In this document: positions 1-38,770 of the stretch, one piece after another | How positions within the stretch are numbered: the stretch's first letter is position 1 | Layout of the letters: the number at the start of each line of letters is the position of its first letter | Assembly (NCBI GenBank): GCA_963619935.1 | Contig: CAVEYA010000064.1 | Location: forward strand, 1 to 45,390 | Direction: 5' to 3' | DNA length: 45,390 bases | Source: a bacterium | GTDB lineage: Bacteria; Bacillota_I; Bacilli_A; RFN20; CAG-826 | Position numbers and translations under genes: made by a program | Notes under the pieces: generated by a model | Told to the model about the DNA's origin: nothing | The model's input: the letters and a program-made list of their open reading frames with translations, nothing else | Databases searched by the model: none

Positions 1-59
1 CATAATAAGGGAAGTTATATCATTTAGTCGGTAAAAAAATACCGAAAGAAAAAAGGAAT

Positions 60-692
60 ATGAAATCAATCTCCAAAAATCAATTAGAAAGATACCCACT
101 TTACCTCAAATACTTAATCTCTTTGCAAGATGAAGGTGAAGAATATATTACCTCTGGTAATATAGCTAATAAATTTAATTTAAATGAAGAATTAGTTAAA
201 AAGGATTTACAATGTGTCTCTACCTCATCAGGGATTCCTAAAAAAGGGAGAGAAATTTCTGCATTAATTAAAGATTTAAGTAATTTTTTAGGTTATCACA
301 ATGTGACAGACGCGATTTTAATCGGCGTTGGTAATTTAGGCAAAGCTTTTTTAAACTATGATGGATTTAATTCTTTTGGTTTAAATATTTTGGCGGGCTT
401 TGATATTAATCCGGATGTGGTAGGTACAACCATTAATGGTAAACCTGTTTTCCCTATGGAAAAATTAGAAAATTTAATTCAAAGAATGAAAATCAAGATT
501 GCCATTATTACTGTTCCAGCTGATTTTGCAAATGAAATTGGAGAAAGGCTTGTGAAAGCTGGTATAGAAGCAATTTGGAATTTTGCTCCAATACATATTG
601 ACGCTGCTAATGAGATAGTCGTGGAAAACGTTAACTTAGCATCCTCGTTAGCTAAGCTATCGCATAAATTAAAGACAAAAATAGAAAAATAA
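60..692 (+). CDS. rex: Redox-sensing transcriptional repressor Rex
   Basis: 210-aa ORF with an N-terminal winged-helix-like region (YPLYLKYL...) and the Rossmann GVGNLG NAD(H) motif typical of Rex. A purine-rich AAAGGA lies just before the ATG. Confidence 0.9.
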   Translation: MKSISKNQLERYPLYLKYLISLQDEGEEYITSGNIANKFNLNEELVKKDLQCVSTSSGIPKKGREISALIKDLSNFLGYHNVTDAILIGVGNLGKAFLNYDGFNSFGLNILAGFDINPDVVGTTINGKPVFPMEKLENLIQRMKIKIAIITVPADFANEIGERLVKAGIEAIWNFAPIHIDAANEIVVENVNLASSLAKLSHKLKTKIEK

Positions 693-724
693 ATATTTAT
701 AAAAGAAAAGGAGAACGAATATTT

Positions 725-3343
725 ATGGAAGAAAAAAAGGTAAACATCCAAGCTCAAGAAGAAGTGGATGAATTAGTCAAAAAAGGACTTGTTGCACTCG
801 ATGAATTCTTACTATTGAACCAAGAACAAATCGATTACATTGTCGCAAAATGTTGTGTAGCCGGTCTAGATCATCATGGCACACTCGCTAAAATAGCAGT
901 GGAAGAAACTAAACGTGGAGTCTTTGAAGATAAGGCCACTAAAAATTTATTTGCATGTGAATATGTGCAAAATAATATGCGTCATTTAAAGACTGTTGGT
1001 GTGATTAGTGAAGACCCAATTACTGGTATTACGCAAATTGCTGATCCTATTGGTGTATTAGCAGGTATTACCCCAGTTACTAATCCTACCTCTACAGTAA
1101 TTTTTAAATCTTTAATTTCATTAAAAACAAGAAACCCAATCATTTTTGCTTTCCATCCAAGCGCTCAAGAAAGCTCTAAAGCAGCAGCCATTGTGATGAG
1201 AGATGCTGCTGTTGCAGCAGGTGCACCAAAAGATTGTATTCAATGGATTGAACATCCAAGTATGGATGCAACTACTGCTTTAATGAACCATCCAGGTGTT
1301 GCTTCTATTTTAGCTACCGGCGGTAACGCGATGGTGAGAGCAGCCTATAGTTGTGGTAAACCAGCAATGGGTGTTGGTGCAGGTAACGTTCCTGCTTATA
1401 TGAATAAGTCTTGCAATGTAGAACAAGCTGTTAATGATATTGTTTTATCTAAATCATTTGACCATGGTATGATCTGTGCTTCTGAACAAGCAGTAATCAT
1501 TGATAAAGATATTTATGATGAATCCCTTAAATTATTTAAGAGATTTAAAGCTTATGTCGTCAATAAAGAAGAAAAAGTTAAACTTTCTCGTTATATGTTT
1601 GGCTTCGCTGCTGGTGATGAAGGCGTAGAAAATGGCAAGCTTAACCCAGCGATTGTTGGTCAAAGTGCCCATTGGATTGCTAAACAAGCTGGATTTGAAA
1701 TTCCAGAAGATACTTCTATTATCTTAGTAGAATGTAAAGAAGTTGGTTCAAAAGAACCAATTAGTAGAGAAAAACTTTCTCCAGTCTTAGCTGTCTTTAA
1801 AGTTAAAGATGATGTTGAAGGCTTTAAGAGAGCAGAAGAAATGGTTTGCTTCAATGGCTTAGGCCACTCCGCAGCAATTCATTGTAAAGAACAAGCAATG
1901 GCGGATGCCTATGGTGAAAATTGTAAAGCAATGAGAATTATTTGGAATTCACCATCTACCTTCGGTGGTATTGGTAATGTTTATAACTCATTCTTACCAT
2001 CTTTAACCTTAGGTTGTGGTAGTTATGGTCATAACTCCATTGGTGATAACGTCAGCGCAATTAACTTATTAAATATTAAAAAAGTCGGTAAAAGGAGAAA
2101 TACTGTGCAGTGGTTTAAGGTACCTTCCAAAATTTATTTTGAAAGAAATTCAATTCAATATTTAAAATCTTGTAAAAATCTATCAAGAGTCTTCATCGTA
2201 ACCGATGGTTCCATGGTGGAATTTGGCTTCTTAGATAAGATTACTTCTCAATTAAATGAAAGAAGAAATAAAGTGACAATTCAATTATTCTGTGATGTTG
2301 AACCTGATCCAGATATTGAAACAGTGAAGAAGGGTACCCGTTTAATGGAAGTCTTCAAACCTGACACAATTATTGCTTTAGGTGGTGGTTCCGTCATGGA
2401 CGCTGCTAAGGGTATGTGGTTATTCTATGAACACCCAGAAGTGAACTTCGATGATTTAAAACAAAAGTTCATGGATATCCGTAAGAGAGCGTTTAAATAT
2501 CCAGAATTAGGTAAGAAATCACACTTAATTTGTATTCCTACTACTTCTGGTACAGGTAGTGAAGTTACTCCTTTCGCAGTTATTTCTGATAAGAAAAATA
2601 ATAAGAAATATCCATTAACAGACTATTCTTTAACACCAACAATTGCGATTGTTGATCCAGAATTTACTACTAACTTACCTCCAAGAAGTACAGCCATGAC
2701 TGGTATGGATGTTTTAACTCATGCGATTGAAGCTTATGTTAGTGTGATGGCAAGTGACTACACAGATGGTTTAGCTTTAAAAGCGATTCAATTAGTCTTT
2801 GAATACTTACCACGTTGTGTGAAAAACGGTGCAAATGACTTGGAAGCAAGAGAAAAAGTGCATAACGCCGCTACTATTGCGGGTATGGCATTTGCTAATG
2901 CTTTCTTAGGTATGACACACTCTATGGCCCACAAAGTAGGAGCAGAATTCCATACAGTTCATGGATTAGCATGTTCCATTTTATTACCGTATGTAATAAA
3001 ATATAACGGCGAGGTCCCAACTAAGTTATCAGTGTGGCCAAAATATAATCATTACTGCGCTGATAAAAAGTATCAAGACATCGCAAAGTTATTAGGGCTT
3101 GAACATGATACCCCAGAACACGCTGTTGCGGCATTAGCAAAAGCAGTTACTGATTTAGCTAAAGAAATTAACTTACCAACTGCCTTCAAAGATGCAGGTA
3201 TTGATGAAGAAAATTTCTTCAAACACTTAGATCGTGTGGCATATTTGGCTTATGAAGATCAATGTTCCCCATGTAACCCAAGAGTACCAATGGTGGAAGA
3301 TATGAAAGATATCCTCACCCGTGCGTACTACGGAAAGGAATAA
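725..3343 (+). CDS. adhE: Bifunctional acetaldehyde-CoA / alcohol dehydrogenase AdhE
   Basis: 872 aa. N-terminal acylating aldehyde dehydrogenase (catalytic Cys in HGMICASEQ) fused to an iron-type alcohol dehydrogenase (GGGSVMDAAK, HSMAHKVG). AAGGAG SD upstream. Confidence 0.95.
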   Translation: MEEKKVNIQAQEEVDELVKKGLVALDEFLLLNQEQIDYIVAKCCVAGLDHHGTLAKIAVEETKRGVFEDKATKNLFACEYVQNNMRHLKTVGVISEDPITGITQIADPIGVLAGITPVTNPTSTVIFKSLISLKTRNPIIFAFHPSAQESSKAAAIVMRDAAVAAGAPKDCIQWIEHPSMDATTALMNHPGVASILATGGNAMVRAAYSCGKPAMGVGAGNVPAYMNKSCNVEQAVNDIVLSKSFDHGMICASEQAVIIDKDIYDESLKLFKRFKAYVVNKEEKVKLSRYMFGFAAGDEGVENGKLNPAIVGQSAHWIAKQAGFEIPEDTSIILVECKEVGSKEPISREKLSPVLAVFKVKDDVEGFKRAEEMVCFNGLGHSAAIHCKEQAMADAYGENCKAMRIIWNSPSTFGGIGNVYNSFLPSLTLGCGSYGHNSIGDNVSAINLLNIKKVGKRRNTVQWFKVPSKIYFERNSIQYLKSCKNLSRVFIVTDGSMVEFGFLDKITSQLNERRNKVTIQLFCDVEPDPDIETVKKGTRLMEVFKPDTIIALGGGSVMDAAKGMWLFYEHPEVNFDDLKQKFMDIRKRAFKYPELGKKSHLICIPTTSGTGSEVTPFAVISDKKNNKKYPLTDYSLTPTIAIVDPEFTTNLPPRSTAMTGMDVLTHAIEAYVSVMASDYTDGLALKAIQLVFEYLPRCVKNGANDLEAREKVHNAATIAGMAFANAFLGMTHSMAHKVGAEFHTVHGLACSILLPYVIKYNGEVPTKLSVWPKYNHYCADKKYQDIAKLLGLEHDTPEHAVAALAKAVTDLAKEINLPTAFKDAGIDEENFFKHLDRVAYLAYEDQCSPCNPRVPMVEDMKDILTRAYYGKE

Positions 3344-3344
3344 T

Positions 3345-3587
3345 ATGGAAATATTAATTTGTGTCGGTAGTTCATGCCATTTGAAAGATAGTTACGATAT
3401 CATCAATCTATTTAAAGAAGCTGTTAAAGCTCATAATTTAGAAAATGAAGTAAACCTAAGAGGCACTTTCTGTTTAGGAAAGTGCGCCTCTTCTGGGGTT
3501 ACTATCAAAGTTGATGATGAAATCATAACAGGAACAACAAAAGATAACTTTGAAGAAGTATTTAACAAATACGTACTTAAAAAATAG
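3345..3587 (+). CDS. Small thioredoxin-like [2Fe-2S] ferredoxin (HfsA-like)
   Basis: 80 aa from ATG 3345 (the ORF-track GTG at 3321 lies inside adhE). Four Cys arranged CVGSSC...CLGKC (C-x4-C ... C-x3-C). GGAAAGGAA SD. Starts 1 nt after the adhE stop. Confidence 0.7.
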   Translation: MEILICVGSSCHLKDSYDIINLFKEAVKAHNLENEVNLRGTFCLGKCASSGVTIKVDDEIITGTTKDNFEEVFNKYVLKK

Positions 3588-3595
3588 GGAATAAT

Positions 3596-5269
3596 ATGGA
3601 ATATTGTTTAATTTCAAAGACAATCAATTGTAAAAACTGCTACAAATGTATTAGACATTGCCCAATTAAGGCAATCTCATTTAAAGATAATAAAGCAGAA
3701 ATCATTCAAGAAGAATGCATTTTATGTGGCAAATGTCATTTAGTGTGCCCACAAAATTTAAAAATTGTCCGTGATGACACAAAGATTGTCGAAGAATTAA
3801 TCAAGAAGCATGAAGTTATTGTCTCTATTGCTCCTTCCTTTGTTTCTTATTACCACACCGGAATTAGTAACGTTAAAGAAGCTTTATTAAAGCTTGGTTT
3901 TAAGGATGTAGAAGAAACTGCAGTTGGGGCGACAATTGTAAAAAAACAATATGAAAAAATCTTAGATGAAGGAAAACAAGATATCTTAATTTCATCTTGC
4001 TGTCATTCTGTTAATCTATTAATTCAAAAGCATTATAAAGGCGCTTTAAAATACCTCGCTAATGTTTATTCCCCAATGGTGGCCCATGGTAAAGATATTA
4101 AAGAGAGAAATAAAGACGCGAAAGTTGTCTTTATTGGACCATGTATCGCCAAGAAAAATGAAGGCGATAGACATCAAGAATATATTGATGCCGTCTTAAC
4201 TTTTGAGGAATTGGATAATTTATTAAAAGAAAATGATATTGAGATTAATCAAGACCATGTTATTAAAAACGAAATTGAAGAATCTAAAGCTAGATTATTC
4301 CCAACTACAGGCGGTATTTTAAAAACTTTAAGTAAAAGAAATGACAATTACACTTATTTAGCCATTGATGGCGTAGAAGAATGTGAAGCTGTCTTACAAG
4401 ATATTCTTGATGGTAAGATTCATCACTGTTTTATTGAAATGAGCGCATGTCACGGCAGTTGTGTAAATGGGCCAATCATGAAACATGATGATTCTATTAT
4501 TACTCGTGATATTGAAATTAATCATTACGCTGGTAAGAAAGACTTTGTTGTTAAAGACACAAATATTAATTATGACTACCAACCAATTTATCACACTAAT
4601 TACGCCACTCCTTCGGAAAAAGACATTCAAGAAATTTTAAATAGTATTGGTAAAACCGATAAAGAACATGAACTTAATTGTGGTTCATGTGGATATGAAA
4701 CATGCCGTAAAAAGGCTGTCGCAGTTCTTCTTAAAAGAGCAACCAGGGAAATGTGCTTACCATATTTAATGGAAAAAGCTCAATCATTCTCTAATAACAT
4801 TGTGAATAATTCTAATGTTGGTTACATCGTTTTAGATGAAAACTTAAATATTCAATTAGTAAATCATAGATTATGTACAATTATTGGTATTAATAATCAA
4901 CAAGATGTGATTAAAAGACCAGTATCCACAATTTTTGATCCAACAGATTTTGCTCGCGCTTTAGCGGGTGACGCCTTACCTTTATACCAAAAAGAATATC
5001 TTTCTAGCTATGATAAATATGTTGAAAAATCGATTCATTATGATGAAAAGTATCATATTTTAATTGCTTCTATTAAAGATATTACTAGTGAAGAAATTGC
5101 TAAACAAAAGCGACAAGAAAGTGTACAAAAGACACTTAAAATTGCCGATGAATTAATTGAAAAACATATGCGCGCAGTGCAAGAAATTGCCTCTTTATTG
5201 GGTGAATCTGCCGCAGAAACTAAGGTTGCCTTACTTTCTTTAAAAGAGACTCTTGACCATGATAAATAA
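3596..5269 (+). CDS. hydS: Sensory-type [FeFe]-hydrogenase with PAS domain (HydS / HfsB-like)
   Basis: 557 aa. Two CxxCxxCxxxCP motifs, H-cluster motifs SSCCH / GPCIAKKNE / EMSACHGSCVNGP, an extra C-x2-C-x4-C-x16-C motif, a PAS-like segment and a coiled-coil tail. Confidence 0.8.
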   Translation: MEYCLISKTINCKNCYKCIRHCPIKAISFKDNKAEIIQEECILCGKCHLVCPQNLKIVRDDTKIVEELIKKHEVIVSIAPSFVSYYHTGISNVKEALLKLGFKDVEETAVGATIVKKQYEKILDEGKQDILISSCCHSVNLLIQKHYKGALKYLANVYSPMVAHGKDIKERNKDAKVVFIGPCIAKKNEGDRHQEYIDAVLTFEELDNLLKENDIEINQDHVIKNEIEESKARLFPTTGGILKTLSKRNDNYTYLAIDGVEECEAVLQDILDGKIHHCFIEMSACHGSCVNGPIMKHDDSIITRDIEINHYAGKKDFVVKDTNINYDYQPIYHTNYATPSEKDIQEILNSIGKTDKEHELNCGSCGYETCRKKAVAVLLKRATREMCLPYLMEKAQSFSNNIVNNSNVGYIVLDENLNIQLVNHRLCTIIGINNQQDVIKRPVSTIFDPTDFARALAGDALPLYQKEYLSSYDKYVEKSIHYDEKYHILIASIKDITSEEIAKQKRQESVQKTLKIADELIEKHMRAVQEIASLLGESAAETKVALLSLKETLDHDK

Positions 5270-6434
5270 TTTAATTACGGAGATTGCTTATTCTTCCGTT
5301 AACCATGTCGGTGAAGAACTCTGTGGCGATAATGTACAAATTATTGAAACAAAAGACGGTAAGGTAATTGTTTTATCTGACGGTTTGGGAAGTGGTGTTA
5401 AAGCTAATATTTTATCCACTTTAACTAGTAAGATGTTATCTACCATGATTGCTAACAATATTTCCATTAAAGAATGTGTAGAAGCGGTCATTGAGACATT
5501 ACCAATTTGTAAAGAAAGACATATTGCGTATTCCACTTTCTCAATTATTAAAATCTCTAATTCTAGAGATGTTGAGATTTATAATTACGATAATCCTTTA
5601 CCATTTTGTATAAACCGTGATGGATTAGTAAAAATTAAATACGAAGAAGAAGTTATTTCAAATAAAAAAATTTACCATGGAGTAGGTAAATTAAATGTTG
5701 ATGATGTCATCTTTTTAATGAGTGATGGAATTATCCATGCTGGTATTGGAGCATCTTTAAACTTTGGCTGGACAATTGATGAAGTAGAAAAATATGTTTC
5801 TAGTTTATATAACGCTGATAATTACTCTGCAAAAACATTAACCACAATCTTGCTTGATCAAGTTAATCGATTATATAACTTTAAGCCAGGAGATGACGCG
5901 ACTGTCGCTGCAATTAAAATTCGTAAAAGAGCAATGTCTAATATCTTTGTTGGGCCACCGACAGATCATAAAGATGATGCGAAGATGGTAAACCTGTTTA
6001 TGGCAAAAGCTGGCAAACATATTGTTTGTGGCGGAACAACAAGCAAAATATTTGCCAAATGTTTAAATCGCGAAATCATCTTTGATGGAGAATATGTTGA
6101 TAAAGAAATTCCTCCAACAAGTAAAATTGAAGGTTTAGATGTCGTTAGTGAAGGAATTATTACTTTAAAGAAAGTTCTCTACTACGCAAATAATTTATTA
6201 GATGAGAATAACACTGAGTACTTCAATTGGTGCTATAAACTTGATGGAGCAAGCCAAATTGCCCGTATTCTATTTGAAGAATCAACGGATGTTAATATCT
6301 TTGTTGGATGTGCGAGTAATGTTGCTCATCAAGATAGTGGAGAAATTGATATTAATAGCAAGCTAACAATGCTTGATCAGTTAAAAAAAGATTTAGAAAA
6401 GATGTCCAAAAAAGTGACAATTACTTATTTTTAG
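5259..6434 (+). CDS. SpoIIE/PP2C-family protein phosphatase with an uncharacterised C-terminal domain (HfsC-like)
   Basis: Motifs CGDN, LSDGLGSGVKA, MSDGIIHAG, GDDATVAAIKI. ATG 5259 overlaps the hydS 3' end by 11 nt; the ORF-track TTG at 5253 is an alternative start. Confidence 0.75.
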   Translation: MINNLITEIAYSSVNHVGEELCGDNVQIIETKDGKVIVLSDGLGSGVKANILSTLTSKMLSTMIANNISIKECVEAVIETLPICKERHIAYSTFSIIKISNSRDVEIYNYDNPLPFCINRDGLVKIKYEEEVISNKKIYHGVGKLNVDDVIFLMSDGIIHAGIGASLNFGWTIDEVEKYVSSLYNADNYSAKTLTTILLDQVNRLYNFKPGDDATVAAIKIRKRAMSNIFVGPPTDHKDDAKMVNLFMAKAGKHIVCGGTTSKIFAKCLNREIIFDGEYVDKEIPPTSKIEGLDVVSEGIITLKKVLYYANNLLDENNTEYFNWCYKLDGASQIARILFEESTDVNIFVGCASNVAHQDSGEIDINSKLTMLDQLKKDLEKMSKKVTITYF

Positions 6435-6444
6435 GAGAGAAGTT

Positions 6445-7884
6445 ATGCAAAAGTTTGATACAAATGTCCAAGAATTAAAATTTAAAGTCTTAAAGCGTGT
6501 CGCCAAAAGCGCGATTGATGGTAATTTATTAGAAGATTATAACGAAATCGCTAAAGAAGTGGTACCTGGTCCAAAACCATCTATGCGTTGCTGTATCTAT
6601 AAAGAAAGAGCAATTGTTTTAGAAAGAATTAAATTAGCGTTGGGTGGCGATAAGAATAATCCAAATATCGTAGAAGTTTTACCAATTGCTTGTGATGAAT
6701 GCCCAACTGGTGGTTATCAAGTGACAAATCGTTGCCGTGGGTGCATTGCTCACCGCTGCGAAAAAGCTTGTTTCCGTCATGCTATTAAATTTGATCCTAA
6801 TACTCGTTCTGCTTATATTGATAAATCGTTATGTGTGAACTGTGGAATGTGTGCTAAGGCTTGTCAATATGAAGCAATTGTCAATATTCAACGTCCATGT
6901 GAACAATCTTGTAAGGTGAAAGCTATCTCTATGAATGAAGATTTCTCTGCGAAGATTGATAATGAAAAGTGTATTCAATGTGGTAACTGTGTTTACCAAT
7001 GTCCATTTGGTGCAATTATGGATAAATCTATGATTGTGGATGTGATTAATGAAATTAAAAATAGTGAACAATCTAAGAAGTACCCAGTTTACGCAGTGAT
7101 TGCTCCTTCTATTTCAACACAATTCAAGACTGCAACGATTGGACAAATTATTACTGCCATTAAAAAATGTGGATTTAAATCTGTTGTAGAAGCCGCTTTA
7201 GGAGCTGATATGGTAGCTTATAACGAGGCTAAAGAATTAGCTAAAGAAGGAAAGATGACTTCTAGTTGCTGTCCAACTTTTGTCACTTTAATTAATAAAT
7301 ACTTCCCTGAATTAAAGGGCTATATTTCTACTTCTTTATCTCCAATGGCAGTGATTTCTCGTTATATTAAAACAGACCATCCAAACGCAAAGATTGTTTT
7401 TGTTGGTCCATGTATCTCGAAAAAGATGGAAATTCGTCGTGAGGATGTTAAACCTTATGTTGATTATGTTTTAACATTTGAAGAAATGAATGCTTTAATC
7501 GCTGCATATGATATTGATATTCCTTCATTAGAAGAAGGTGTCTTAGATAATGCTTCTTACTTTGGCCGTTGCTTTGCCCGTTGTGGTGGGGTTTCTGACG
7601 CAGTAAAAGAATCACTTAAAGAACAAAATATTGATTTTGATTTACACGTTTGCCAAGCTGATGGTGTCACTAACTGTATGGCGGCCTTAAGCAAATTAAA
7701 AAATAACACGGCTGACTTTAATTTCCTAGAAGGCATGGGCTGTGTAAATGGTTGCATCGGTGGCCCAGGATGTGTCACTCATGAAATTAGAGATAAAATG
7801 GATGTTGATAAATATGGTAAATTAGCAAAAGAAAAGACCATTATTGATTCCGTTTCCGTCTTCGGCATTGATAAAGAAAAATAG
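6445..7884 (+). CDS. hydA: [FeFe]-hydrogenase, catalytic type (group B-like monomeric form, HfsD-like)
   Basis: 479 aa. Cys-rich N-terminus, two 4Fe-4S ferredoxin motifs (CVNCGMCAKAC, CIQCGNCVYQCP), H-cluster motifs TSSCCP, GPCISKKME, EGMGCVNGCIGGPGC. GGAGAG SD. Confidence 0.8.
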   Translation: MQKFDTNVQELKFKVLKRVAKSAIDGNLLEDYNEIAKEVVPGPKPSMRCCIYKERAIVLERIKLALGGDKNNPNIVEVLPIACDECPTGGYQVTNRCRGCIAHRCEKACFRHAIKFDPNTRSAYIDKSLCVNCGMCAKACQYEAIVNIQRPCEQSCKVKAISMNEDFSAKIDNEKCIQCGNCVYQCPFGAIMDKSMIVDVINEIKNSEQSKKYPVYAVIAPSISTQFKTATIGQIITAIKKCGFKSVVEAALGADMVAYNEAKELAKEGKMTSSCCPTFVTLINKYFPELKGYISTSLSPMAVISRYIKTDHPNAKIVFVGPCISKKMEIRREDVKPYVDYVLTFEEMNALIAAYDIDIPSLEEGVLDNASYFGRCFARCGGVSDAVKESLKEQNIDFDLHVCQADGVTNCMAALSKLKNNTADFNFLEGMGCVNGCIGGPGCVTHEIRDKMDVDKYGKLAKEKTIIDSVSVFGIDKEK

Positions 7885-7903
7885 AATTTAACTAATTTTA
7901 CTT

Positions 7904-7936
7904 AACCGAATTCTTAATGAGTTCGGTTTTTATTTA
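7904..7936 (+). terminator. Intrinsic terminator ending the rex-to-hydA operon
   Basis: AACCGAATTC / GAGTTCGGTT stem (10 bp with one G-U pair), 5-nt loop, then TTTTTATTT. Confidence 0.7.
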
Positions 7937-7981
7937 TAAACTTTTACTTTCTTGATACATAGGGGGCTGATATTCCTATGC

Positions 7982-8010
7982 TTGACACAATCTTATATAT
8001 CAAGTAAAAT
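7982..8010 (+). promoter_or_regulatory. Sigma-A type promoter for asp23-fakA
   Basis: TTGACA (7982-7987), 17-nt spacer, TAAAAT (8005-8010). Confidence 0.6.
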
Positions 8011-8034
8011 GTGAGCACTCCTATAAGGAGTATT

Positions 8035-8382
8035 ATGAAAGAGACAAATAAAACCACAATAAATATTAAAGAATTAATTAACCTTATTCGTGAAACCGCG
8101 ATTAAGTGTTATGGTGTGGTTTCAATTGCCAGTAAAGAAAACGTCTTTGACGACGTATTAACTCAACTTACCAAGAAAGGAAAAATGGAGGAAGGTATCT
8201 TCGTGAAAAGAAAATCCGACGGTACTTTTGCTGTTAACATTTACTTAGTATTGGCGAACGGAATTAAAATTACTGAAGCTCTTAGAGAATGTCAAAAAAG
8301 TATTGAACATACTTTAAAGAAAACTTATCCAAATTCAATTCGTCAGGTAAATGTATTTGCGGAACATATCTCCATTAACTAA
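8035..8382 (+). CDS. Asp23/Gls24-family envelope stress protein
   Basis: 115 aa from ATG 8035, with AAGGAG SD at 8025-8030 (ORF-track GTG 8011 rejected). Family-typical sequence and position just upstream of fakA. Confidence 0.85.
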   Translation: MKETNKTTINIKELINLIRETAIKCYGVVSIASKENVFDDVLTQLTKKGKMEEGIFVKRKSDGTFAVNIYLVLANGIKITEALRECQKSIEHTLKKTYPNSIRQVNVFAEHISIN

Positions 8383-8387
8383 GAACA

Positions 8388-10049
8388 ATGAAATCTGTTA
8401 ACGGACAATCCCTTAAGCAAATGCTTATATCAGGATCAAATAATTTATATAATCACTATCCAGAAGTGGATGCTTTAAATGTTTTCCCAGTGCCTGATGG
8501 CGATACTGGTATGAACATGAATTTAACCATGACAAGTGGTTCAAAAGAAATTCAAAATCGTAGTGACTTAGATATCCATGAAATTGCGAAAGTATTCTCT
8601 CGTGGCTTATTAATGGGGGCAAGAGGAAACTCTGGTGTTATCACCAGTCAAATCTTCCGTGGCTTCGCTCAAGGCTTAGAAGGCAAAGAAGAAGTTAACG
8701 CAATTGAATTTGCGGATGCCTGGCAAAAAGGTGTTGAAGTCGCCTATAAAGCGGTTGTTAGACCTGTAGAAGGCACAATCTTAACAGTGATTAGAGAATC
8801 TAGCCAATATTTACATGATCATGTCAAAGAAAATATGACCATTGATAAAGCAATGGATTTATTAATTGAAGAAGCTAAAGCTTCTTTAAAGAGAACTCCT
8901 GAATTATTACCAATCTTAAAAGAAGTTGGTGTAGTTGATTCTGGCGGTCAAGGTTTAGTGAAAATCTTTGAAGGTATGCGTTTAGCAATTGCGGGTAACT
9001 TTGTGGAACGTAATCAAGCTACCGCGACCGATAAAGAAAATCCTCTTGTTGCCGCGGGAGCATCAATGGAAGATGAAGAATTTGGTTATTGTACTGAATT
9101 TATCATGTCTTTAGGACCTGATAGTGTGAAGAAAGTCTTTAATGAAAAAAGATTTACTAATATCTTAGCAAGCCATGGTAACTCCTTAGTCGTCGTGCGC
9201 GATGAAGATATTGTTAAGGTTCACGTGCACACAATGACTCCTGGTGTGGTCTTAAACTACGCTCAACAATTCGGTGAATTCTTAAAATTAAAAATTGAAA
9301 ATATGACCGAACAACATCACGCTTTAGAAACCGGCGCAACCGTAGAAGCTCATGTTGATTTAGTGGAAGAAAATAAACCAAAAGAGAAATACGCTATGAT
9401 CGCAGTTTCTTCTGGTGACGGATTAGATGAATTCTTCCGTGAAATTGGTATTACCGGTATTGTAAAAGGTGGTCAAACTATGAATCCATCTAGTGAAGAC
9501 TTCCTCTCTGCTATTAAGAAAGTGAATGCGGAAAATATTTATATTTTCCCAAATAACTCCAATATCGTGATGGCTGCTTCCCAAGCTTGTGAAATGGTAG
9601 AAGATAAAGATGTTCGTGTCTTTGTCATTCCAAGTAAAACAATTCCACAAGGCATTACAAGCGCAATTATGTTTAATCCAGAAGTTTCCCCTGAAGATAA
9701 CTTCAATGAAATGAAATCTGCTTTAAAGAATGTTAAGTCTGGCGAAATTACCTTTGCGATTAGAGACAGCGAAATTAATGGTGTTCAAGTACATAAAGAT
9801 GACTTCATTGGCATCATGGAAAAAGAAATTGTTGTCGATACAAAAAATAAAGAAGATGCTTTGTTTACATTATTAGATAAAATGATTGATGAAGATTCTT
9901 CCTTAATCACCTTAATCGTTGGTGCAGACATATCTGAAGAAGATGCAAACGCCTTAAGAGATAAAGTTAGCGAAAAATACAGCGACCTCGATATCGATGT
10001 GCATATGGGTCAACAACCAGTTTATTCATTCTTAGTAGGTGTTGAATAA
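8388..10049 (+). CDS. fakA: Fatty acid kinase ATP-binding subunit (DAK2-domain protein, YloV/FakA)
   Basis: 553 aa. Dak2 motif PDGDTGMNM. Sits in the conserved asp23 - fakA - recG position known from staphylococci and bacilli. Confidence 0.8.
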   Translation: MKSVNGQSLKQMLISGSNNLYNHYPEVDALNVFPVPDGDTGMNMNLTMTSGSKEIQNRSDLDIHEIAKVFSRGLLMGARGNSGVITSQIFRGFAQGLEGKEEVNAIEFADAWQKGVEVAYKAVVRPVEGTILTVIRESSQYLHDHVKENMTIDKAMDLLIEEAKASLKRTPELLPILKEVGVVDSGGQGLVKIFEGMRLAIAGNFVERNQATATDKENPLVAAGASMEDEEFGYCTEFIMSLGPDSVKKVFNEKRFTNILASHGNSLVVVRDEDIVKVHVHTMTPGVVLNYAQQFGEFLKLKIENMTEQHHALETGATVEAHVDLVEENKPKEKYAMIAVSSGDGLDEFFREIGITGIVKGGQTMNPSSEDFLSAIKKVNAENIYIFPNNSNIVMAASQACEMVEDKDVRVFVIPSKTIPQGITSAIMFNPEVSPEDNFNEMKSALKNVKSGEITFAIRDSEINGVQVHKDDFIGIMEKEIVVDTKNKEDALFTLLDKMIDEDSSLITLIVGADISEEDANALRDKVSEKYSDLDIDVHMGQQPVYSFLVGVE

Positions 10050-10071
10050 AGATTAATATAGTGAGAAAATG

Positions 10072-10099
10072 GCAAATCATTGATTTGCTATTTTTCTTT
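10072..10099 (+). terminator. Intrinsic terminator after fakA
   Basis: GCAAAT / ATTTGC stem within the palindrome GCAAATCATTGATTTGC, followed by TATTTTTCTTT. Confidence 0.55.
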
Positions 10100-10119
10100 A
10101 TAACTTGAATAATAAATAT

Positions 10120-12120
10120 ATGGATAAGTTAACTAAATCCCCACGTTTAAATAAATTACTTTACCAAATGGGTATTTTTAATAATTATCAAGTAATTGAA
10201 CATTTACCCAAAAGGTACGATAACCTTTCCTACACAGGTGAAAGAAATTTAAATGACAAACAAAGAGTAGTGTTATTAGGTAAAGTTATTTCATTACCAA
10301 AAGTAGTACAAGCAAAAAAGCTCACTGTAGTCACTTTTGATTTTATGACGGTCAATAAGTCATATTTCCGTATTGTGGCCTTCAATCGGCCTTATTTAGG
10401 CAAATCTATTGATTTAGTGAACGATTACACCCTTGTTGGAACCTATAATTTAAAAAGAAATGAAATTGATTTAGTGAATATTTATAAAGGGGAGATTCCT
10501 TTAGAAGAGAGAATTAAACCGATTTATAATTTACCTTCTGATTATCCAAATCATCTATTTTCTCATTTAGTAAAAAAGTCATTAACTGAATTAGAAGGTA
10601 AAATTTTTACCTCTATTCCTTATGTCTATTTAAATAAATATCGTTTAGTGAAAAAAGAAGTCGCGATGAATTGGGCTCATTTTCCCACAAACTTTGAACA
10701 AGTCAGACAAGCATTAAGACATTTAAAATATGAAGAAGCATTATTATTCTCTTTAAAGAATCAAATTATTCGCGAAGAAAATAAATCTTTAGCGAAGATT
10801 AAAAAAGAACCGATTGATTTATCTATCTGTAAACCATTTTTAGATAATTTGCCTTATTCTTTGACTGATGATCAAAAAGTGGCTTGTGATGAAATTATTA
10901 ATGATATGAATCAATCTTCTTTAATGTATCGTTTATTACAAGGGGATGTAGGAACTGGTAAGACACTTGTGTCTTTCATTTGCTTATATGCAAATTATAT
11001 TCGCGGAGACCAAGGAGCTTTAATGGCGCCTACTGACGCTTTAGCAAGACAACATTATCAAAACGCTTTAGAAATGTTTAATGACACTAAAATTAGGATT
11101 GCTTTATTACTTGGCTCAACTCCGAACAGTGAGAAAAAACAAATTTATCAAGATTTAGAAGATGGCACGATTGATATTGTGATAGGGACTCACGCTTTAT
11201 TTTCTAAATCTGTTAACTATTCTTCTTTAGGTCTAGCAATTATTGATGAGCAACATCGTTTTGGTGTAAACCAAAGAGTAATGCTAGCAAATAAGGGTGA
11301 ACACGCAGATTTATTAATGATGTCCGCAACTCCTATTCCAAGAAGCTTAGCGTTAACTTTATATGGTGATTTAGATATTTCTACATTAACTAGTTTTCCT
11401 GGTAAGAAAAGATTAGTGACCACTGAGATAGTAGAATCAAACGATCAAAAAATATATGACACGATTGATGAATCCTTAAAAGAAAATAGACAAGTTTATA
11501 TTGTTGCACCTTTAATTGATTATCACGAAGATGAACGATATTCTGTGGAACAATTATTTGCGAGATTTGCTCTTAAATATAAAGGTAAAGTAGGTTTATT
11601 ACATGGTAGAATGAAAGTTGAAGAAAAAGAAAACGCTTTAGCTAAATTCTATAGTGGAGAACTACCTATTTTAGTCTCCACACCAGTTATTGAAGTTGGG
11701 ATTGATGTAAAAAAGGCAAACACGATGGTTATCTATGATGCTTCTAGTTTTGGCCTAGCCTCACTTCACCAATTACGAGGACGTATTGGTAGAGATGGTA
11801 GCAAAGCCCATTGTTTATTAACAATGGATGAAGATTGTGACGAAGCTAAAGAGCGTTTAAATATTTTAGTAAATAGTGAAGATGGCTTTAAAATTGCGGA
11901 AGAAGATATGAAATTACGTGGGCCAGGTGAATTAACAGGAGTAAAACAGTCTGGTTTACCAAATTTCTCATTCTTAAATATTATTAATGACTATAAAGTT
12001 TTTGTTGTTGCCAGAGACGACGCAAAAGAGATTTTGAAGGATAAAAATAATAAATATTATTCTTGGATTATTAATAAAGCTAAATTAGATATTACAAATA
12101 GTCCTTCTATTAAGGGATAA
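10120..12120 (+). CDS. recG: ATP-dependent DNA helicase RecG
   Basis: About 666 aa from ATG 10120 (ORF-track TTG 10105 possible). Walker A GDVGTGKT, DEQH box, C-terminal helicase motifs. Confidence 0.9.
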   Translation: MDKLTKSPRLNKLLYQMGIFNNYQVIEHLPKRYDNLSYTGERNLNDKQRVVLLGKVISLPKVVQAKKLTVVTFDFMTVNKSYFRIVAFNRPYLGKSIDLVNDYTLVGTYNLKRNEIDLVNIYKGEIPLEERIKPIYNLPSDYPNHLFSHLVKKSLTELEGKIFTSIPYVYLNKYRLVKKEVAMNWAHFPTNFEQVRQALRHLKYEEALLFSLKNQIIREENKSLAKIKKEPIDLSICKPFLDNLPYSLTDDQKVACDEIINDMNQSSLMYRLLQGDVGTGKTLVSFICLYANYIRGDQGALMAPTDALARQHYQNALEMFNDTKIRIALLLGSTPNSEKKQIYQDLEDGTIDIVIGTHALFSKSVNYSSLGLAIIDEQHRFGVNQRVMLANKGEHADLLMMSATPIPRSLALTLYGDLDISTLTSFPGKKRLVTTEIVESNDQKIYDTIDESLKENRQVYIVAPLIDYHEDERYSVEQLFARFALKYKGKVGLLHGRMKVEEKENALAKFYSGELPILVSTPVIEVGIDVKKANTMVIYDASSFGLASLHQLRGRIGRDGSKAHCLLTMDEDCDEAKERLNILVNSEDGFKIAEEDMKLRGPGELTGVKQSGLPNFSFLNIINDYKVFVVARDDAKEILKDKNNKYYSWIINKAKLDITNSPSIKG

Positions 12121-12141
12121 TACATTTTACAAAACAATAAA

Positions 12142-12171
12142 TTGTTTTAGATAGCGTATCAATGATACAAT
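12142..12171 (+). promoter_or_regulatory. Candidate promoter for plsX-rnc-ftsY
   Basis: TTGTTT, 18-nt spacer, TGaTACAAT extended -10 (TACAAT at 12166-12171). Confidence 0.4.
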
Positions 12172-12190
12172 ACTTAGCGAGGTATTTACT

Positions 12191-13171
12191 ATGTTAAAAA
12201 TTGTTGTTGATGCGATGGGTGGAGATTTAGGCTCCAGCGCAGTCGTTGATGGTGTATTAGCCTTTTTAAAAGAAAATCATGATGTGGAAATTACCGCAGT
12301 TGGTAAAAAAGAAGAATTAACTGCATTAGAAAATAAATGCCGTATTATTGACGCTCCTGATATTGTTCCTATGGAAGCAGGAGCTTTAGAAGTTATGAGA
12401 ATGAAAAATTCTTCTATGATGGTGGCTATTAAAACAATGAAAGAAGAAGGACTAGACGCTGTTGTTTCTTGTGGCTCCACTGGTGGATTTTTAAGTGCTT
12501 CAACAATTAATTTAAAAATGATTCCTGGCGTGAAAAGAGCAGCTTTAGTTGCTCCTTTCCCAACCCAAATTAAAGGCAAGAAAGTTGTTATTCTTGATAT
12601 TGGAGCAAATAACGAAAACTCACCTGAAGAATTAGTACAATTTGCCTTAATGGGTAAGCTATATAGCGAAAGCGTTTATGGCGTTAAAGAACCAAAGGTT
12701 TATTTATTAAGCAATGGGGCAGAAGAAGGTAAAGGCGCTCCAGAAGTTAAAGAAGCTTATAAGCTATTAAAAGAAAATAATTTCCCTGGATTTATGGGAA
12801 ACATTGAAGCACGTTATGCCTTAAATGGTGAAGCGGATGTCGTTGTAGCGGATGGCTTTACAGGCAATGTGTTTTTAAAATCTTCCGAAGGAATTGCTAA
12901 AATTATGTCTTCTATGATGAAGAAAGCTTTTAAGCAAAATCTATGGACTAAGTTAGGCTATCTCCATGTTAAAAAAGGTATCAAAGAAATGAGCGACACA
13001 ATGGATTATAAACACACTGGTGGGGCAATGCTCCTTGGTGTGAATGGTGTGGTTGTTAAAGCTCATGGCAGTTCCAATGGCCAAGCCTTTAAATGCGCCT
13101 TAGATGTTGCAAAAAAATTAGCAATTAATGATGTTGCTAATAAGATAAAGAAGGGCCTCGCAAATGAGTAA
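12191..13171 (+). CDS. plsX: Phosphate acyltransferase PlsX
   Basis: 326 aa. Typical PlsX sequence (VDAMGGD, CGSTGG, HGSS). Confidence 0.95.
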   Translation: MLKIVVDAMGGDLGSSAVVDGVLAFLKENHDVEITAVGKKEELTALENKCRIIDAPDIVPMEAGALEVMRMKNSSMMVAIKTMKEEGLDAVVSCGSTGGFLSASTINLKMIPGVKRAALVAPFPTQIKGKKVVILDIGANNENSPEELVQFALMGKLYSESVYGVKEPKVYLLSNGAEEGKGAPEVKEAYKLLKENNFPGFMGNIEARYALNGEADVVVADGFTGNVFLKSSEGIAKIMSSMMKKAFKQNLWTKLGYLHVKKGIKEMSDTMDYKHTGGAMLLGVNGVVVKAHGSSNGQAFKCALDVAKKLAINDVANKIKKGLANE

Positions 13172-13847
13172 TTTAGCGGAATTAGAAAAAGTATTAGGAA
13201 TTAAAATCCATAATGAAGTTCTTTATGAACTTGCTTTAACTCATCCTTCAAATAACGCAGATGCTAATACGAAACACCGTGATTATGAAAGATTAGAATT
13301 CATGGGCGATGCAGTCCTTGGATATGTTTCGGCAGATTTGATTTTTAAATCTCGACCAGAGATGGATCAAGGTTTAATGAGTAAATTAAGAAGTTATTTA
13401 GTTAAATCTCATTCTTTAGCGGAATACGCTAGACAAATAGATCTAGCCCGTTTTATTAAAACGGGACATTCATTGAACACTGCTAATATTTTTGCGAGTG
13501 ATAAAATCTTAGAAGATGTTTTTGAAGCTTTAATAGGTGCTATTTATTTAGATTTAGGTATTGAAGTTGCTTATAAATATATTGAGCGTTTTTTAAAGGA
13601 TGATGTTAAAAATACAAAAGTGGAAGATTTAACGGATTGTAAATCTCGTTTACAAGAAGAAATGCAATCTGAATATCGTGATAGTGTGCATTATGTTTTA
13701 ATTGGTCAATCAGGCCCTGCTCATGATCGCACTTTTGAAGTTAATGTAATGTTTAATGATATTGTTTTAGCTTCAGGCAAAGGCAAAAGCAAAAAAGCTG
13801 CAGAAGAAGAAGCGGCAAGAAATGCTTTAGCGAAAAGGAGCGTGTAA
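13164..13847 (+). CDS. rnc: Ribonuclease III
   Basis: 227 aa. RNase III signature ERLEFMGDAVL and a C-terminal dsRBD. Overlaps plsX by 8 nt. Confidence 0.95.
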   Translation: MSNLAELEKVLGIKIHNEVLYELALTHPSNNADANTKHRDYERLEFMGDAVLGYVSADLIFKSRPEMDQGLMSKLRSYLVKSHSLAEYARQIDLARFIKTGHSLNTANIFASDKILEDVFEALIGAIYLDLGIEVAYKYIERFLKDDVKNTKVEDLTDCKSRLQEEMQSEYRDSVHYVLIGQSGPAHDRTFEVNVMFNDIVLASGKGKSKKAAEEEAARNALAKRSV

Positions 13848-14818
13848 TGGGTTTAATATCATTTTTAAAAAGCAAATTTGCGAAAAAAGATACTGAGACT
13901 GCAAAATATTCTAACGGGATGGAAAAATCACGGAAGAATTTTTCTAGTAAATTAAAAAATCTTTCTAGTCGTTATAAAACGGTTAACCAAGAATATTTTG
14001 ATGAGTTAGAACAAATCTTAATTGAATCTGACGCTGGTATAAATTTTACTTTGAATATCATTGAAGAAGTTTTAGAAAGAAGTAAAAAAGAACATATTAC
14101 CGATCCTAAAACTATTAATGAAATTTTGGTCGATAGAATGTTTATTGGCTATGCCGAAAAGGGTGATATTCAAAATGAAATTTCTTTCAAAGAAGGAACA
14201 CCTACAGTTTTACTGGTTGTTGGCGTTAATGGGGTTGGTAAAACTACCACGATAGCAAAATTAGCTAAAAGGTATTTAGACCAGCATAAAAAAGTAATGC
14301 TTGTTGCTGCCGATACATTTAGAGCGGGAGCAGTTGAACAATTAACTGTTTGGGCAAATCGATTAAAGATTGATATTGTATCAGGGGCTAATGAAGCTGA
14401 TCCAGCTAGTGTTGCTTTTGATGGAGTAAAAAGAGCTAAACAAGAAAATTGTGATTTAGTGATTATTGACACTGCTGGTAGACTCCAAACTAAAGCTAAC
14501 TTAATGGCAGAATTGGCCAAAATTAAAAGAGTTATCTCTAAAGAGATAGAAGGTGCCCCACAAGAAACTTTCTTAATTATTGATGCAACGACTGGTCAAA
14601 ATGGTGTTTTACAAGCAAAAGCCTTTGCGGAAGTTACTGACTTAACCGGTGTTGTGATTACTAAAATGGATGGCACTAGTAAAGGCGGTATTATTCTTGC
14701 AATCCGTGATGAACTAGGAGTGCCGGTGCGTTTTATTGGCTTAGGCGAAAAAATGGATGATTTAACTGAATTTGATTTGGATAAATATCTCTATGGACTA
14801 TGTGTGGAGGATGAATAA
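13847..14818 (+). CDS. ftsY: Signal recognition particle receptor FtsY
   Basis: 323 aa. SRP GTPase motifs GVNGVGKTTT, DTAGR, TKMD. 1-nt overlap with the rnc stop. Confidence 0.95.
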   Translation: MGLISFLKSKFAKKDTETAKYSNGMEKSRKNFSSKLKNLSSRYKTVNQEYFDELEQILIESDAGINFTLNIIEEVLERSKKEHITDPKTINEILVDRMFIGYAEKGDIQNEISFKEGTPTVLLVVGVNGVGKTTTIAKLAKRYLDQHKKVMLVAADTFRAGAVEQLTVWANRLKIDIVSGANEADPASVAFDGVKRAKQENCDLVIIDTAGRLQTKANLMAELAKIKRVISKEIEGAPQETFLIIDATTGQNGVLQAKAFAEVTDLTGVVITKMDGTSKGGIILAIRDELGVPVRFIGLGEKMDDLTEFDLDKYLYGLCVEDE

Positions 14819-15144
14819 TGGCAAACTCATTAGAAACCACTCTCAAATATTCTGATTTATTGCTTCTTTATCAAAATCTCTTATCGGATACCCAAAAAGA
14901 AATATTGGATGATTATTTCTCATATAATCTTTCCATCAGTGAAATTGCCGAAAATCGTGAAATTTCTCGTTCTGCAGTTGAAGACGCAATTAAGAAAGGC
15001 AAAAAGAAACTTGATCAAATTGAAAAAGAAATTGGCAATTTACAAGTTTTAAATATTATTTATCAAATGAAAAGTGATGCTACTGATGAAAAAGTCATTG
15101 CATCCTTAGAAGAAATAGAAAGGATTATGAAACATGGCATTTGA
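14818..15144 (+). CDS. ylxM: YlxM/UPF0122 putative helix-turn-helix protein of the SRP operon
   Basis: 108 aa. Sigma-70 region-4-like HTH (LSISEIAENREISRSAV). Conserved position immediately before ffh. Confidence 0.8.
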   Translation: MANSLETTLKYSDLLLLYQNLLSDTQKEILDDYFSYNLSISEIAENREISRSAVEDAIKKGKKKLDQIEKEIGNLQVLNIIYQMKSDATDEKVIASLEEIERIMKHGI

Positions 15145-37906: not shown

Positions 37907-38737
37907 CTATCTAACGAGGCTTAATAGTTTTTCTTTGCTTTTCTTCAAGAGGACATAAAAATCCATACTTGCGTCTTCATCAAGTATAGGAATTGCCTTT
38001 CTATTTTCGATAATATGATGGTCTTTTGTGATTGAAGAAACAAAGGATGGAATGCTTGAATATTCAGCTAATTCTTTAAGATCGTCTTGGGAAGAGAGAC
38101 GGACGAATCTTGAATTCTTTAGCTGGAGTTTCAATATTTCATCCCAGACTCCGACATAATTAAATAAAAGGAAGGTTTGTTTATCAATGTCTTTCCAATA
38201 GACCCCATCGTTTTTCTCATATAAGAAATGAGTGTCAGGAACATAGACATATAGTCTTTCATTCATGACTTTTTTACAAATAAATTTCTCATCATTATAC
38301 GGATGATTAATAAAGATAATGTCGTAAGCGTTATTGTTTAATCCTTTTATGAGATTTTCTTCGTTATCCAGTTTAGAGATGATTCTAGAAACGTTTTTAG
38401 ATGGAGCGAATAATGATTGAAAACGATACAAAGGCCCAGGCGCGGTATAACCAATAGAAATAGTATTTTCTTTGTCTTTTAACTCTTTTGCCTTTTGATA
38501 TAGCCTCTCATCCATTTCTTTGATGTCCTTCATATATGGTAGAAGTTCCTTCCCTATTTCATTGAGAGTAATCTTGTTTGCTTTCCTTTCAAAAAGATGT
38601 ACATTTAACTCATTTTCTAGTTTTTGCATTGCTTTAGACAAAGATGGTTGAGAAATATGTAATTTTTCTGATGCCTTCAAAAGGGAACCTTCCTCGTAAT
38701 ATACTAGCAAATATTCCAATAAATTATTGTCTAACAT
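37907..38737 (-). CDS. LysR-family transcriptional regulator
   Basis: 276 aa from ATG 38737 (GGAG SD). HTH SLLKASEKLHISQPSLSKAMQKLE. The ORF-track start at 38749 would overlap the operator dyad. Confidence 0.9.
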   Translation of the reverse strand: MLDNNLLEYLLVYYEEGSLLKASEKLHISQPSLSKAMQKLENELNVHLFERKANKITLNEIGKELLPYMKDIKEMDERLYQKAKELKDKENTISIGYTAPGPLYRFQSLFAPSKNVSRIISKLDNEENLIKGLNNNAYDIIFINHPYNDEKFICKKVMNERLYVYVPDTHFLYEKNDGVYWKDIDKQTFLLFNYVGVWDEILKLQLKNSRFVRLSSQDDLKELAEYSSIPSFVSSITKDHHIIENRKAIPILDEDASMDFYVLLKKSKEKLLSLVR

Positions 38738-38745
38738 AATTATCT

Positions 38746-38770
38746 CCACTATTCGATTTTATTATAGTGG
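38746..38770. promoter_or_regulatory. LysR-type T-N11-A dyad operator in the divergent intergenic region
   Basis: CCACTAT (38746-38752), exactly 11 nt, ATAGTGG (38764-38770), i.e. a perfect 7-bp inverted repeat containing T-N11-A. Confidence 0.55.

Follow-up and report, generated by a model that had tools for sequence, protein, structure and literature searches.

Gene clusters in which rex and adhE are followed by genes for a HydS-type [FeFe]-hydrogenase, a PP2C phosphatase and a further hydrogenase have been described in Ruminococcus albus and Clostridium thermocellum, and a compact cluster of this kind lies at the start of the DNA analyzed here, a 45,390-nt stretch from a bacterium of the Bacilli (contig CAVEYA010000064.1; hereafter the window). 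In R. albus 7, genes RUMAL_RS17350–17385 of pRUMAL01 lie on one strand in the order rex, adhE/aad, phosphotransferase, two (2Fe-2S) ferredoxins, hydS, SpoIIE phosphatase and hydA2. A larger R. albus unit with Aad, a kinase, a phosphatase and Rex has reportedly been described. With an H2 consumer holding H2 at a low level, expression of the eight-gene cluster falls 111-fold (Greening et al., 2019; PMC6776011). The term transcriptional unit has been applied to HydA2 and HydS of pRumal01 (PMC10838669), and co-transcription of HydS with both HydA2 and the alcohol dehydrogenase has been described (PMC6776011, PMC10838669). The C. thermocellum cluster (Cthe_0422–0431; Clo1313_1799–1793) consists of a rex paralogue, adhE, and genes for an aminoglycoside phosphotransferase, a hypothetical protein, an Fe-S/HydS protein, a SpoIIE protein, a NuoE-like protein and an Fe-only hydrogenase, all of which are co-regulated, co-regulation being described for Cthe_0422–0432 (PMC3848806). 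Thermoanaerobacterium strains deleted for hfsA or hfsB express more adhE and yield more ethanol (PMC5707799, PMC11837493).

The window cluster comprises six plus-strand genes, which encode a redox-sensing repressor in the NF003994 subfamily that combines winged helix-turn-helix (HTH) and Rossmann domains (rex, 60–692), an acetaldehyde-CoA/alcohol dehydrogenase with two functions (adhE, 725–3343), an 80-amino-acid thioredoxin-like [2Fe-2S] ferredoxin (3345–3587, with an ATG preceded by a ribosome-binding site; a longer GTG open reading frame begins at 3321), a PAS-[FeFe]-hydrogenase of M2f/group C architecture that is a putative H2 sensor (hydS, 3596–5269), a PP2C phosphatase (5259–6434, ATG start, 11-nt overlap with hydS) and a monomeric [FeFe]-hydrogenase of ferredoxin type (TIGR04105, "B1"; 6445–7884). 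With a probability of about 0.72, we read this cluster from its sequence as one operon, a compact version in low-GC (guanine plus cytosine) Bacilli of the "high-H2" fermentation operon, joining two electron sinks and two control inputs.

The six genes are separated by 32, 1, 8, −11 and 10 nt, and the intrinsic terminator at 7904–7936 on the plus strand (a 10-bp stem at 7904–7928 followed by a T-tract; ΔG −12.9 kcal/mol, z −5.1) is the sole convincing one on that strand. A promoter-like site at 7982–8010 on the plus strand (TTGACA-17-TAAAAT, 11/12), which precedes the next unit (asp23/fakA/recG), marks the downstream boundary. Within the operon region, promoter-like hexamers are not enriched (32 versus 38 ± 6 in shuffled sequences). 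The reading frames and spacings and the lack of an earlier convincing terminator agree with a preliminary description of this DNA, and curated profiles bear out its family assignments, with the refinements given below. The six-gene block is kept in close relatives with different flanks, its gene order being conserved far beyond chance and recurring in dozens of genomes, and comparison of the window with a 72%-identical relative (L002) indicates that the block is moved or retained as a unit. In L002, the neighbors of the block (6100–15000, corresponding to window 1–8400) are unrelated: upstream lie a PemK toxin gene and a tRNA-like sequence, and downstream another gene set. With only 1 nt and no terminator between the adhE stop codon and the ferredoxin gene, and with a block that travels whole between contexts, the six genes appear to form a single transcription unit.

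The R. albus 7 cluster shares with the window its single strand, gene order, Rex subfamily NF003994, HydS architecture, a PP2C protein with a C-terminal domain and a TIGR04105-type hydrogenase, and its Rex and HydA2 match the same NCBIfam models as the window proteins; a related palindrome also precedes rex in both. Identities between the window and R. albus proteins are 39% for Rex, 45% for AdhE, 55% for the HydS-proximal ferredoxin, 49% for HydS, 46% for PP2C and 59% for HydA2. The window ferredoxin, 55% identical to RUMAL_RS17370 versus 36% to RUMAL_RS17365, is by this measure the orthologue of the HydS-proximal copy, and the second hydrogenase, earlier called HydA, is likewise by similarity the orthologue of R. 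albus HydA2, which also matches TIGR04105. In contrast to R. albus 7, the window has neither the APH-type kinase nor the kinase-proximal ferredoxin, and thus has one ferredoxin gene instead of two; its cluster is chromosomal, among housekeeping genes, whereas that of R. albus 7 is on a megaplasmid; its palindrome lies at the start site, whereas that of R. albus 7 lies about 60 nt upstream of the −10 box; and the LysR gene found upstream of the R. albus cluster is absent from this position in the window. As described, the C. thermocellum cluster resembles the window in that rex–adhE is followed by the HydS/PP2C module and a hydrogenase, but its partner hydrogenase is multimeric and NuoE/NuoF-linked and a kinase is present. 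The hfsABCD genes of Thermoanaerobacterium saccharolyticum and T. thermosaccharolyticum correspond by description to the same four-gene core of a small protein, the PAS-hydrogenase HfsB, the PP2C protein HfsC and the ferredoxin-linked HfsD (described as HydA2-like), but adhE and rex are unlinked to them and HfsA is described as aligning poorly with known proteins. The preliminary proposal that two sensors and two electron sinks are combined in a single unit is therefore supported by gene spacing and by gene-for-gene homology to the R. albus cluster, but the wiring is not new: the window holds a compact, reduced version in low-GC Bacilli of a known operon, that of R. albus and C. thermocellum.

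The neighborhood survey proposed in the preliminary description was made with a profile of 17 HydS homologues against contigs of one genome per species, taking the best 80 of at least 594 relatives (loci L001 onward) and identifying neighbors by tblastn with the window proteins. Among the 46 loci with at least 6 kb of upstream sequence, 31 carry a same-strand adhE no farther than 5 kb away, 25 carry rex, 20 carry both and 33 carry an APH-type kinase (Pfam APH); downstream of HydS, PP2C is found at 61/61 loci and a TIGR04105-type hydrogenase at 58/61, these frequencies being biased upwards since the surveyed loci are the closest relatives (49–58% identity) and not phylogenetically independent. 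Linkage of adhE and rex to HydS is, on these counts, far above chance.

Among the surveyed loci, the six-gene form with one ferredoxin gene and no kinase is limited, besides the window, to its close relatives L001–L004 and to L006–L008. L005 and L080 also have the kinase-less, one-ferredoxin form but show no rex match, and adhE is absent as well from L009 and L010. The kinase-less loci are mostly of low GC content (30–35%), with L080 at 56%. A tblastn search with the L035 kinase finds no APH-type kinase in the 45-kb window or in L001–L010, and a domain scan of the six operon proteins finds no STAS or GHKL domains such as occur in partner switching of the RsbU/RsbV/RsbW kind. The earlier statement that no kinase is encoded here therefore holds. 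The signaling route, which had been left blank, indeed has no kinase, STAS or GHKL component in the operon, but it is less blank than supposed, since the canonical clusters do hold an APH-type kinase, whose absence from the window is the real peculiarity. Loci L006, L007, L008 and L010 have a GC content of 30–31% and a Bacilli-type cluster, yet are found in metagenome-assembled genome bins labeled Acutalibacteraceae, Gemmiger formicilis and Slackia isoflavoniconvertens, of which Gemmiger and Slackia are names of high-GC organisms; they are probably mis-binned.

HydS consists of two N-terminal [4Fe-4S] motifs (C12/15/18/22 and C41/44/47/51, with Fer4 matches), the H-domain (Fe_hyd_lg_C, PF02906), a Cx2Cx4Cx16C motif (C362, C365, C370 and C387; PF04060, 33–35 bits) and a PAS domain (PF00989, 23.5–25.3 bits versus a cut-off of 22.6). 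All four H-cluster cysteines (C136, C183, C285 and C289) are present. The N-terminal 2×[4Fe-4S] region, the H-domain and the C-terminal Cx2Cx4Cx16C motif are common to the window protein, HydS of Thermotoga maritima (group C, M2f) and HydS of Thermoanaerobacter mathranii (group D, M2e) (PMC10055695, PMC8163306), and the PAS domain is shared with group C, while the genomic partners of the window protein differ from those of both. In the second sphere, the positions of CpI M353 and M497 are occupied by Gly181 and Ser283, as in T. maritima HydS. The C299 position, described as "not conserved" in sensory enzymes (PMC8163306, PMC10055695), is Ala in T. maritima HydS but is kept as Cys135 (3998–4000) in the window and is invariant in 17 homologues. 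His137, which replaces the Pro of the TSCCP motif, is also invariant in those homologues. Even for the reference HydS enzymes, the H2-sensor role is putative (PMC10055695).

The protein encoded immediately downstream, by a gene that overlaps hydS, has two domains. The first 223 residues (5259–5927, plus strand) form a PP2C domain of the SpoIIE/RsbU type (PF07228), whose AlphaFold2 model (pLDDT 87) matches 3pu9, 5mqh and 5ucg in Foldseek at E values of about 1e-12, and whose metal-binding residues D24, D41, D156, D212 and D213 (GD/DG/DG/DD motifs) are invariant in 30 homologues. The assignment as a SpoIIE-type PP2C protein thus stands, but the preliminary description had overlooked an extra C-terminal domain of 168 residues (residues 224–391; 5928–6434, plus strand), a Rossmann-like α/β domain with an invariant GGTT(S) loop. 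This domain (model pLDDT 87) has no Pfam match and no significant Foldseek match in the PDB (best E 8e-3, TM 0.41); it occurs in 836 representative clusters and is always present in HydS-linked phosphatases. It is also found as a stand-alone protein of about 162 residues, twice beside a small [2Fe-2S] ferredoxin (L207 and L211, one of them with an APH kinase too) and once after HydS (L210); three further stand-alone contexts are uninformative, one being on a 725-nt contig and two having unrelated neighbors. The domain may be a partner or substrate module of the signaling system.

Upstream of rex, alignment of window positions 1–75 with L001 and L002 places a 17-nt promoter spacer at 1–17 on the plus strand, with the −35 box immediately before position 1, and a predicted −10 box, TATCAT, at 18–23 on the plus strand (TATTAT in L001 and TAATAT in L002), on the basis of consensus and conservation. 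The DNA preceding position 1 was taken from L001, whose HydS is 96% identical to that of the window and in which the terminator of the preceding gene is followed by TTGACA-17-TATTAT upstream of rex. Directly after the −10 box, an 18-bp palindrome (TCGGTAA-AAAA-aTACCGA, 28–45; window form TCGGTAAAAAAATACCGA) spans the predicted start site, is conserved in L001 and L002, and is a candidate operator of the Rex paralogue. Geometrically it matches a Rex box (7-N4-7), but its half-site, TCGGTAA, differs from TTGT(G/T)AA. No canonical Rex box (TTGT(G/T)AA-N4-TT(C/A)ACAA) occurs with three or fewer mismatches in 1–59 or 693–724. In the whole window, the same scan gives 41 matches versus 31 expected, none of them near the promoter, and in the 300 nt upstream of rex in L001 and L002 the best canonical match carries four mismatches. 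The preliminary description, which saw no Rex-box-like palindrome at 1–59 and placed the promoter upstream of the window, is thus right about the −35 box and the canonical Rex box, but the −10 box, the likely start and a 7-N4-7 palindrome lie inside the window.

Related palindromes precede rex in other clusters. In L006–L008, the palindrome ATATCAGTAAAAAAATATTGATAT overlaps the −35 box. In Clostridia, including R. albus 7, the pattern ATATCGATA-N6/7-TAYCGATAT occurs before rex, often in tandem at a spacing of 15 bp and about 45–70 nt upstream of a TAnAAT −10 box; the R. albus site is ATATCGATAAAGATAATATCGATAT.

The window Rex belongs to the Rex family, as first described (NF003994, 252 bits versus a cut-off of 130; PF06971 and PF02629; GVGNLG at residue 89; matches to Rex structures in the PDB at E values of 1e-23 to 1e-35). 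It shares with canonical Rex proteins (Bacillus subtilis, T. maritima, Clostridium acetobutylicum and C. thermocellum Rex_2471) a winged HTH, an NAD(H)-binding Rossmann domain with GxGxxG, an 18-bp 7-N4-7 operator, which is a candidate in the window, and fermentation-gene targets, but differs from them in the wing and in the half-site. The wing of the cluster-linked Rex proteins reads SGxGKPK(I/V)GY (SSGIPKKGR in the window), in place of the canonical FGxxGxxGYGY, and the recognition helix is altered as well. On these sequence features, the cluster-linked Rex is a distinct, divergent paralogue group and not the canonical binder of TTGTTAA-N4-TTAACAA; it resembles C. thermocellum Rex_1799, a second divergent paralogue encoded beside adhE that is 34–36% identical to characterized Rex proteins (PMC8457756). 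In C. thermocellum, DNA affinity purification sequencing determined a motif only for the canonical Rex_2471 (TTGTTAA-N4-TTAACAA), and a Rex_1799 site was not reported (PMC8457756).

The type of operator appears to switch with the presence or absence of a cis-encoded Rex paralogue. In rex-led clusters, the palindrome (at most one mismatch) is found at 23/29 loci and a canonical Rex box (at most two mismatches) at 5/29, whereas in adhE-first clusters without rex in cis the corresponding values are 2/13 and 10/13, against a background rate per 300 nt of 1.6% for either motif. In clusters without their own rex, a near-canonical clostridial Rex box (e.g., TTGTTAAAATAATAACAA) lies 61–105 nt before adhE (L017, L019, L030, L031, L037, L044, L053, L062, L063 and L075). 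An unbiased scan of metagenome contigs for exact matches to the Clostridia-type pattern gives 120 loci; classed by the gene that begins no more than 350 nt from the site, they include 36 with rex, seven with an NfnAB-like gene (three then followed by rex), six with Ldh, three with Fe-ADH, two with adhE and one with a kinase. From its composition, this downstream set looks like the NAD(H)-linked fermentation genes controlled by Rex. Palindromes also precede operons of Fe-alcohol dehydrogenase, short-chain dehydrogenase/reductase and NfnAB-like genes, nfnAB–rex units and ldh (L054, 2853–2890; L050, 845–880; L110, L163, L180, L174 and others), which suggests a regulon wider than the hydrogenase operon.

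Since the palindrome follows cis rex, the downstream gene set is Rex-like and the Rex group is distinct, we favor autoregulation of the operon by its own Rex via the 28–45 site, and consider it somewhat more likely than not. The palindrome could instead be bound by another regulator, or act as an RNA hairpin in the 5′ untranslated region, with Rex acting elsewhere, but we consider this less likely. Its half-site is unlike that of every characterized Rex box (PMC8457756), and the window site could form a 6-bp RNA hairpin (ΔG −6.8, z −3.3). Furthermore, an orthologous LysR-type gene lies just upstream, on the same strand, of Clostridia-type rex–adhE–hydS clusters and nfnAB–rex units (L085, 1273–2205, which is R. 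albus RUMAL_RS17345; L035, 3695–4618; and many others; 16/26 rex-led genome loci), and the sites in such clusters are located at about −65, a typical position for an activator. However, among loci with LysR the palindrome is present in 15/16 that are rex-led and in 1/11 that have no rex (Fisher p = 1.4e-5, a value inflated by the relatedness of the loci), and among loci without LysR in 5/9 and 4/14, respectively; association of the palindrome with LysR over all loci gives p = 0.26. An orthologous LysR gene was not found near window-type clusters, and the window's own LysR gene (37907–38749, minus strand) has only the HTH domain in common with the Clostridia-type protein. The LysR-type regulator was therefore rejected as a better explanation of the palindrome, which tracks cis rex and not LysR. 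Overlap of the site with the −35 box in L006–L008 and its position upstream of the promoter in Clostridia make a role at the level of DNA the common denominator, which argues against a hairpin, and the genes downstream of the palindrome (rex, nfnAB, ldh, adh and adhE) resemble a Rex regulon. A full-text search of the motif with hydrogenase or redox-sensing terms found no literature that ties the palindrome to Rex.

Two further explanations concern the hydrogenase genes themselves. The ferredoxin, HydS, PP2C and second hydrogenase might be partners of one catalytic hydrogenase of the Hfs type, with HydS acting mainly as an enzyme and the regulatory effects being indirect. In Thermoanaerobacterium, hfsABCD was found to encode the hydrogenase chiefly responsible for H2 production, and hydrogenase activity drops when the whole operon is deleted (PMC5707799, PMC11837493); all H-cluster ligands and Cys135 are retained in the window HydS, and the close coupling of all four genes points to a complex. 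We nevertheless consider this explanation rather improbable, because the window HydS has the sensory-type second sphere, the Cx2Cx4Cx16C cluster and the PAS domain (PMC10055695, PMC8163306), a PP2C phosphatase is a signaling enzyme, and deletion of hfsB alone raised hydrogenase activity and adhE expression, which the authors interpreted as regulation (PMC5707799). Still less probable, in our estimation, is transcription of rex–adhE and of the four hydrogenase-related genes as separate transcripts from their own promoters. Consistent with such a split, adhE is unlinked to hfs in T. saccharolyticum (PMC5707799), many surveyed loci have no adhE or no rex, and promoter-like hexamers occur inside adhE (e.g., at 1695 and 2139; 10/12); against it, such matches are no commoner than in shuffled sequence, the adhE–ferredoxin junction is 1 nt with no terminator, the block changes its genomic surroundings as a unit, and co-regulation spans the whole cluster in the homologues of R. 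albus and C. thermocellum (PMC6776011, PMC3848806).

Several points weigh against our reading of the locus as a "high-H2" operon with two sinks and two control inputs. Operon status, start site and Rex binding in this organism are all inferred from the DNA. HydS keeps the proton-transfer cysteine that is absent from T. maritima HydS and may, to judge from this residue, be catalytically more competent than a pure sensor. The window palindrome differs in both sequence and position from the Clostridia-type TATCGATA units, which lie about 60–80 nt upstream of the −10 box, and the proposed equation of the two rests on their similarity, on the intermediates in L006–L008 and on their shared place before orthologous rex genes. 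Finally, as the window has no kinase, the substrate of PP2C cannot be read from the operon, and the relatedness of the surveyed loci, noted above, applies to the survey p-values as well as to the frequencies.

According to the operon reading that we prefer, transcription would start at a predicted σA promoter, with the −35 box just before the window and the −10 box at 18–23, and proceed to the terminator at 7904–7936. AdhE would re-oxidize NADH by formation of ethanol, and the TIGR04105-type hydrogenase would re-oxidize reduced ferredoxin by formation of H2; by analogy with R. albus, both sinks would be required once H2 builds up and its formation ceases to be an outlet for NADH. The Rex paralogue of the operon would sense NADH/NAD+ and most likely binds the 28–45 site across the start site, resulting in autoregulation. 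HydS, together with the translationally coupled PP2C protein and the small [2Fe-2S] ferredoxin, would report H2 or the redox state of ferredoxin, as homology to the known systems suggests. As there is no kinase in cis, phosphorylation would have to come from a kinase encoded elsewhere, or else the PP2C protein would signal via its C-terminal domain.

In fermenting bacteria of the gut and rumen, operons of this type determine whether electrons leave as H2, a substrate for methanogens, or as ethanol; they have also been an engineering target for ethanol yield. The window adds no new principle to this, but shows the module in low-GC Bacilli/Erysipelotrichaceae-like organisms, stripped of the kinase and of one ferredoxin, and supplies a concrete candidate for the operator of the second Rex paralogue, which is poorly understood. 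This candidate operator and regulon are the one possibly new element of the locus. We give even odds to a wider model in which Rex of the NF003994/Rex_1799 type is a separate subfamily with the operator TCGRTAA-N4/5-TTAYCGA (TATCGATA-type in Clostridia, TCGGTAAAAAAATACCGA in the window), which would autoregulate and control a dedicated "high-H2" regulon (rex–adhE–hydS–hydrogenase, nfnAB-like, ldh and Fe-adh) in parallel with the housekeeping Rex acting on TTGTTAA-N4-TTAACAA; the kinase-less six-gene form would then be a minimal H2/NADH switch, with the PP2C C-terminal domain as the remaining signaling partner. If true, the operator would separate two parallel Rex regulons and offer a way to study how the sensing of H2 through HydS/PP2C and that of NADH come together at a single promoter.

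The enzymes of the two sinks have the features expected of their families. AdhE matches the equivalog model NF010378 with 1388.6 bits (cut-off 951) and is a fusion of the Pfam Aldedh and Fe-ADH domains. The second hydrogenase, an [FeFe]-hydrogenase as first described and more precisely one of the R. albus HydA2 type, matches TIGR04105 ("monomeric [FeFe] hydrogenase") over residues 4–446 with 557.8 bits (cut-off 450), and its H-cluster motifs TSSCCP, GPCISKKME and EGMGCVNGC are intact. NCBIfam places both this protein and R. albus HydA2 (L085, 9847–11283) in TIGR04105 "B1," whereas HydA2 is called group A1 by Greening et al. (2019; PMC6776011). Glycine occupies the M353 position in both, as it is reported to do in CpIII of C. 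pasteurianum. No solved structures of group C or TIGR04105-type hydrogenases were found for comparison. The 80-residue ferredoxin matches PF01257 and carries its cysteines in a Cx4Cx31Cx3C arrangement (C6, C11, C43 and C47).

Elsewhere, the window consists of housekeeping DNA of the kind usual in Bacillota (FtsY, Ffh, TrmD, TopA, RpsB and PolC). The GC content is 33%. An Rfam scan of the window found two tRNAs only, and no riboswitch or leader. Open reading frames of more than 1000 codons are absent from the window apart from polC. At 13164–14818, ftsY directly follows rnc, with no smc between them; in B. subtilis, smc sits between rnc and ftsY.

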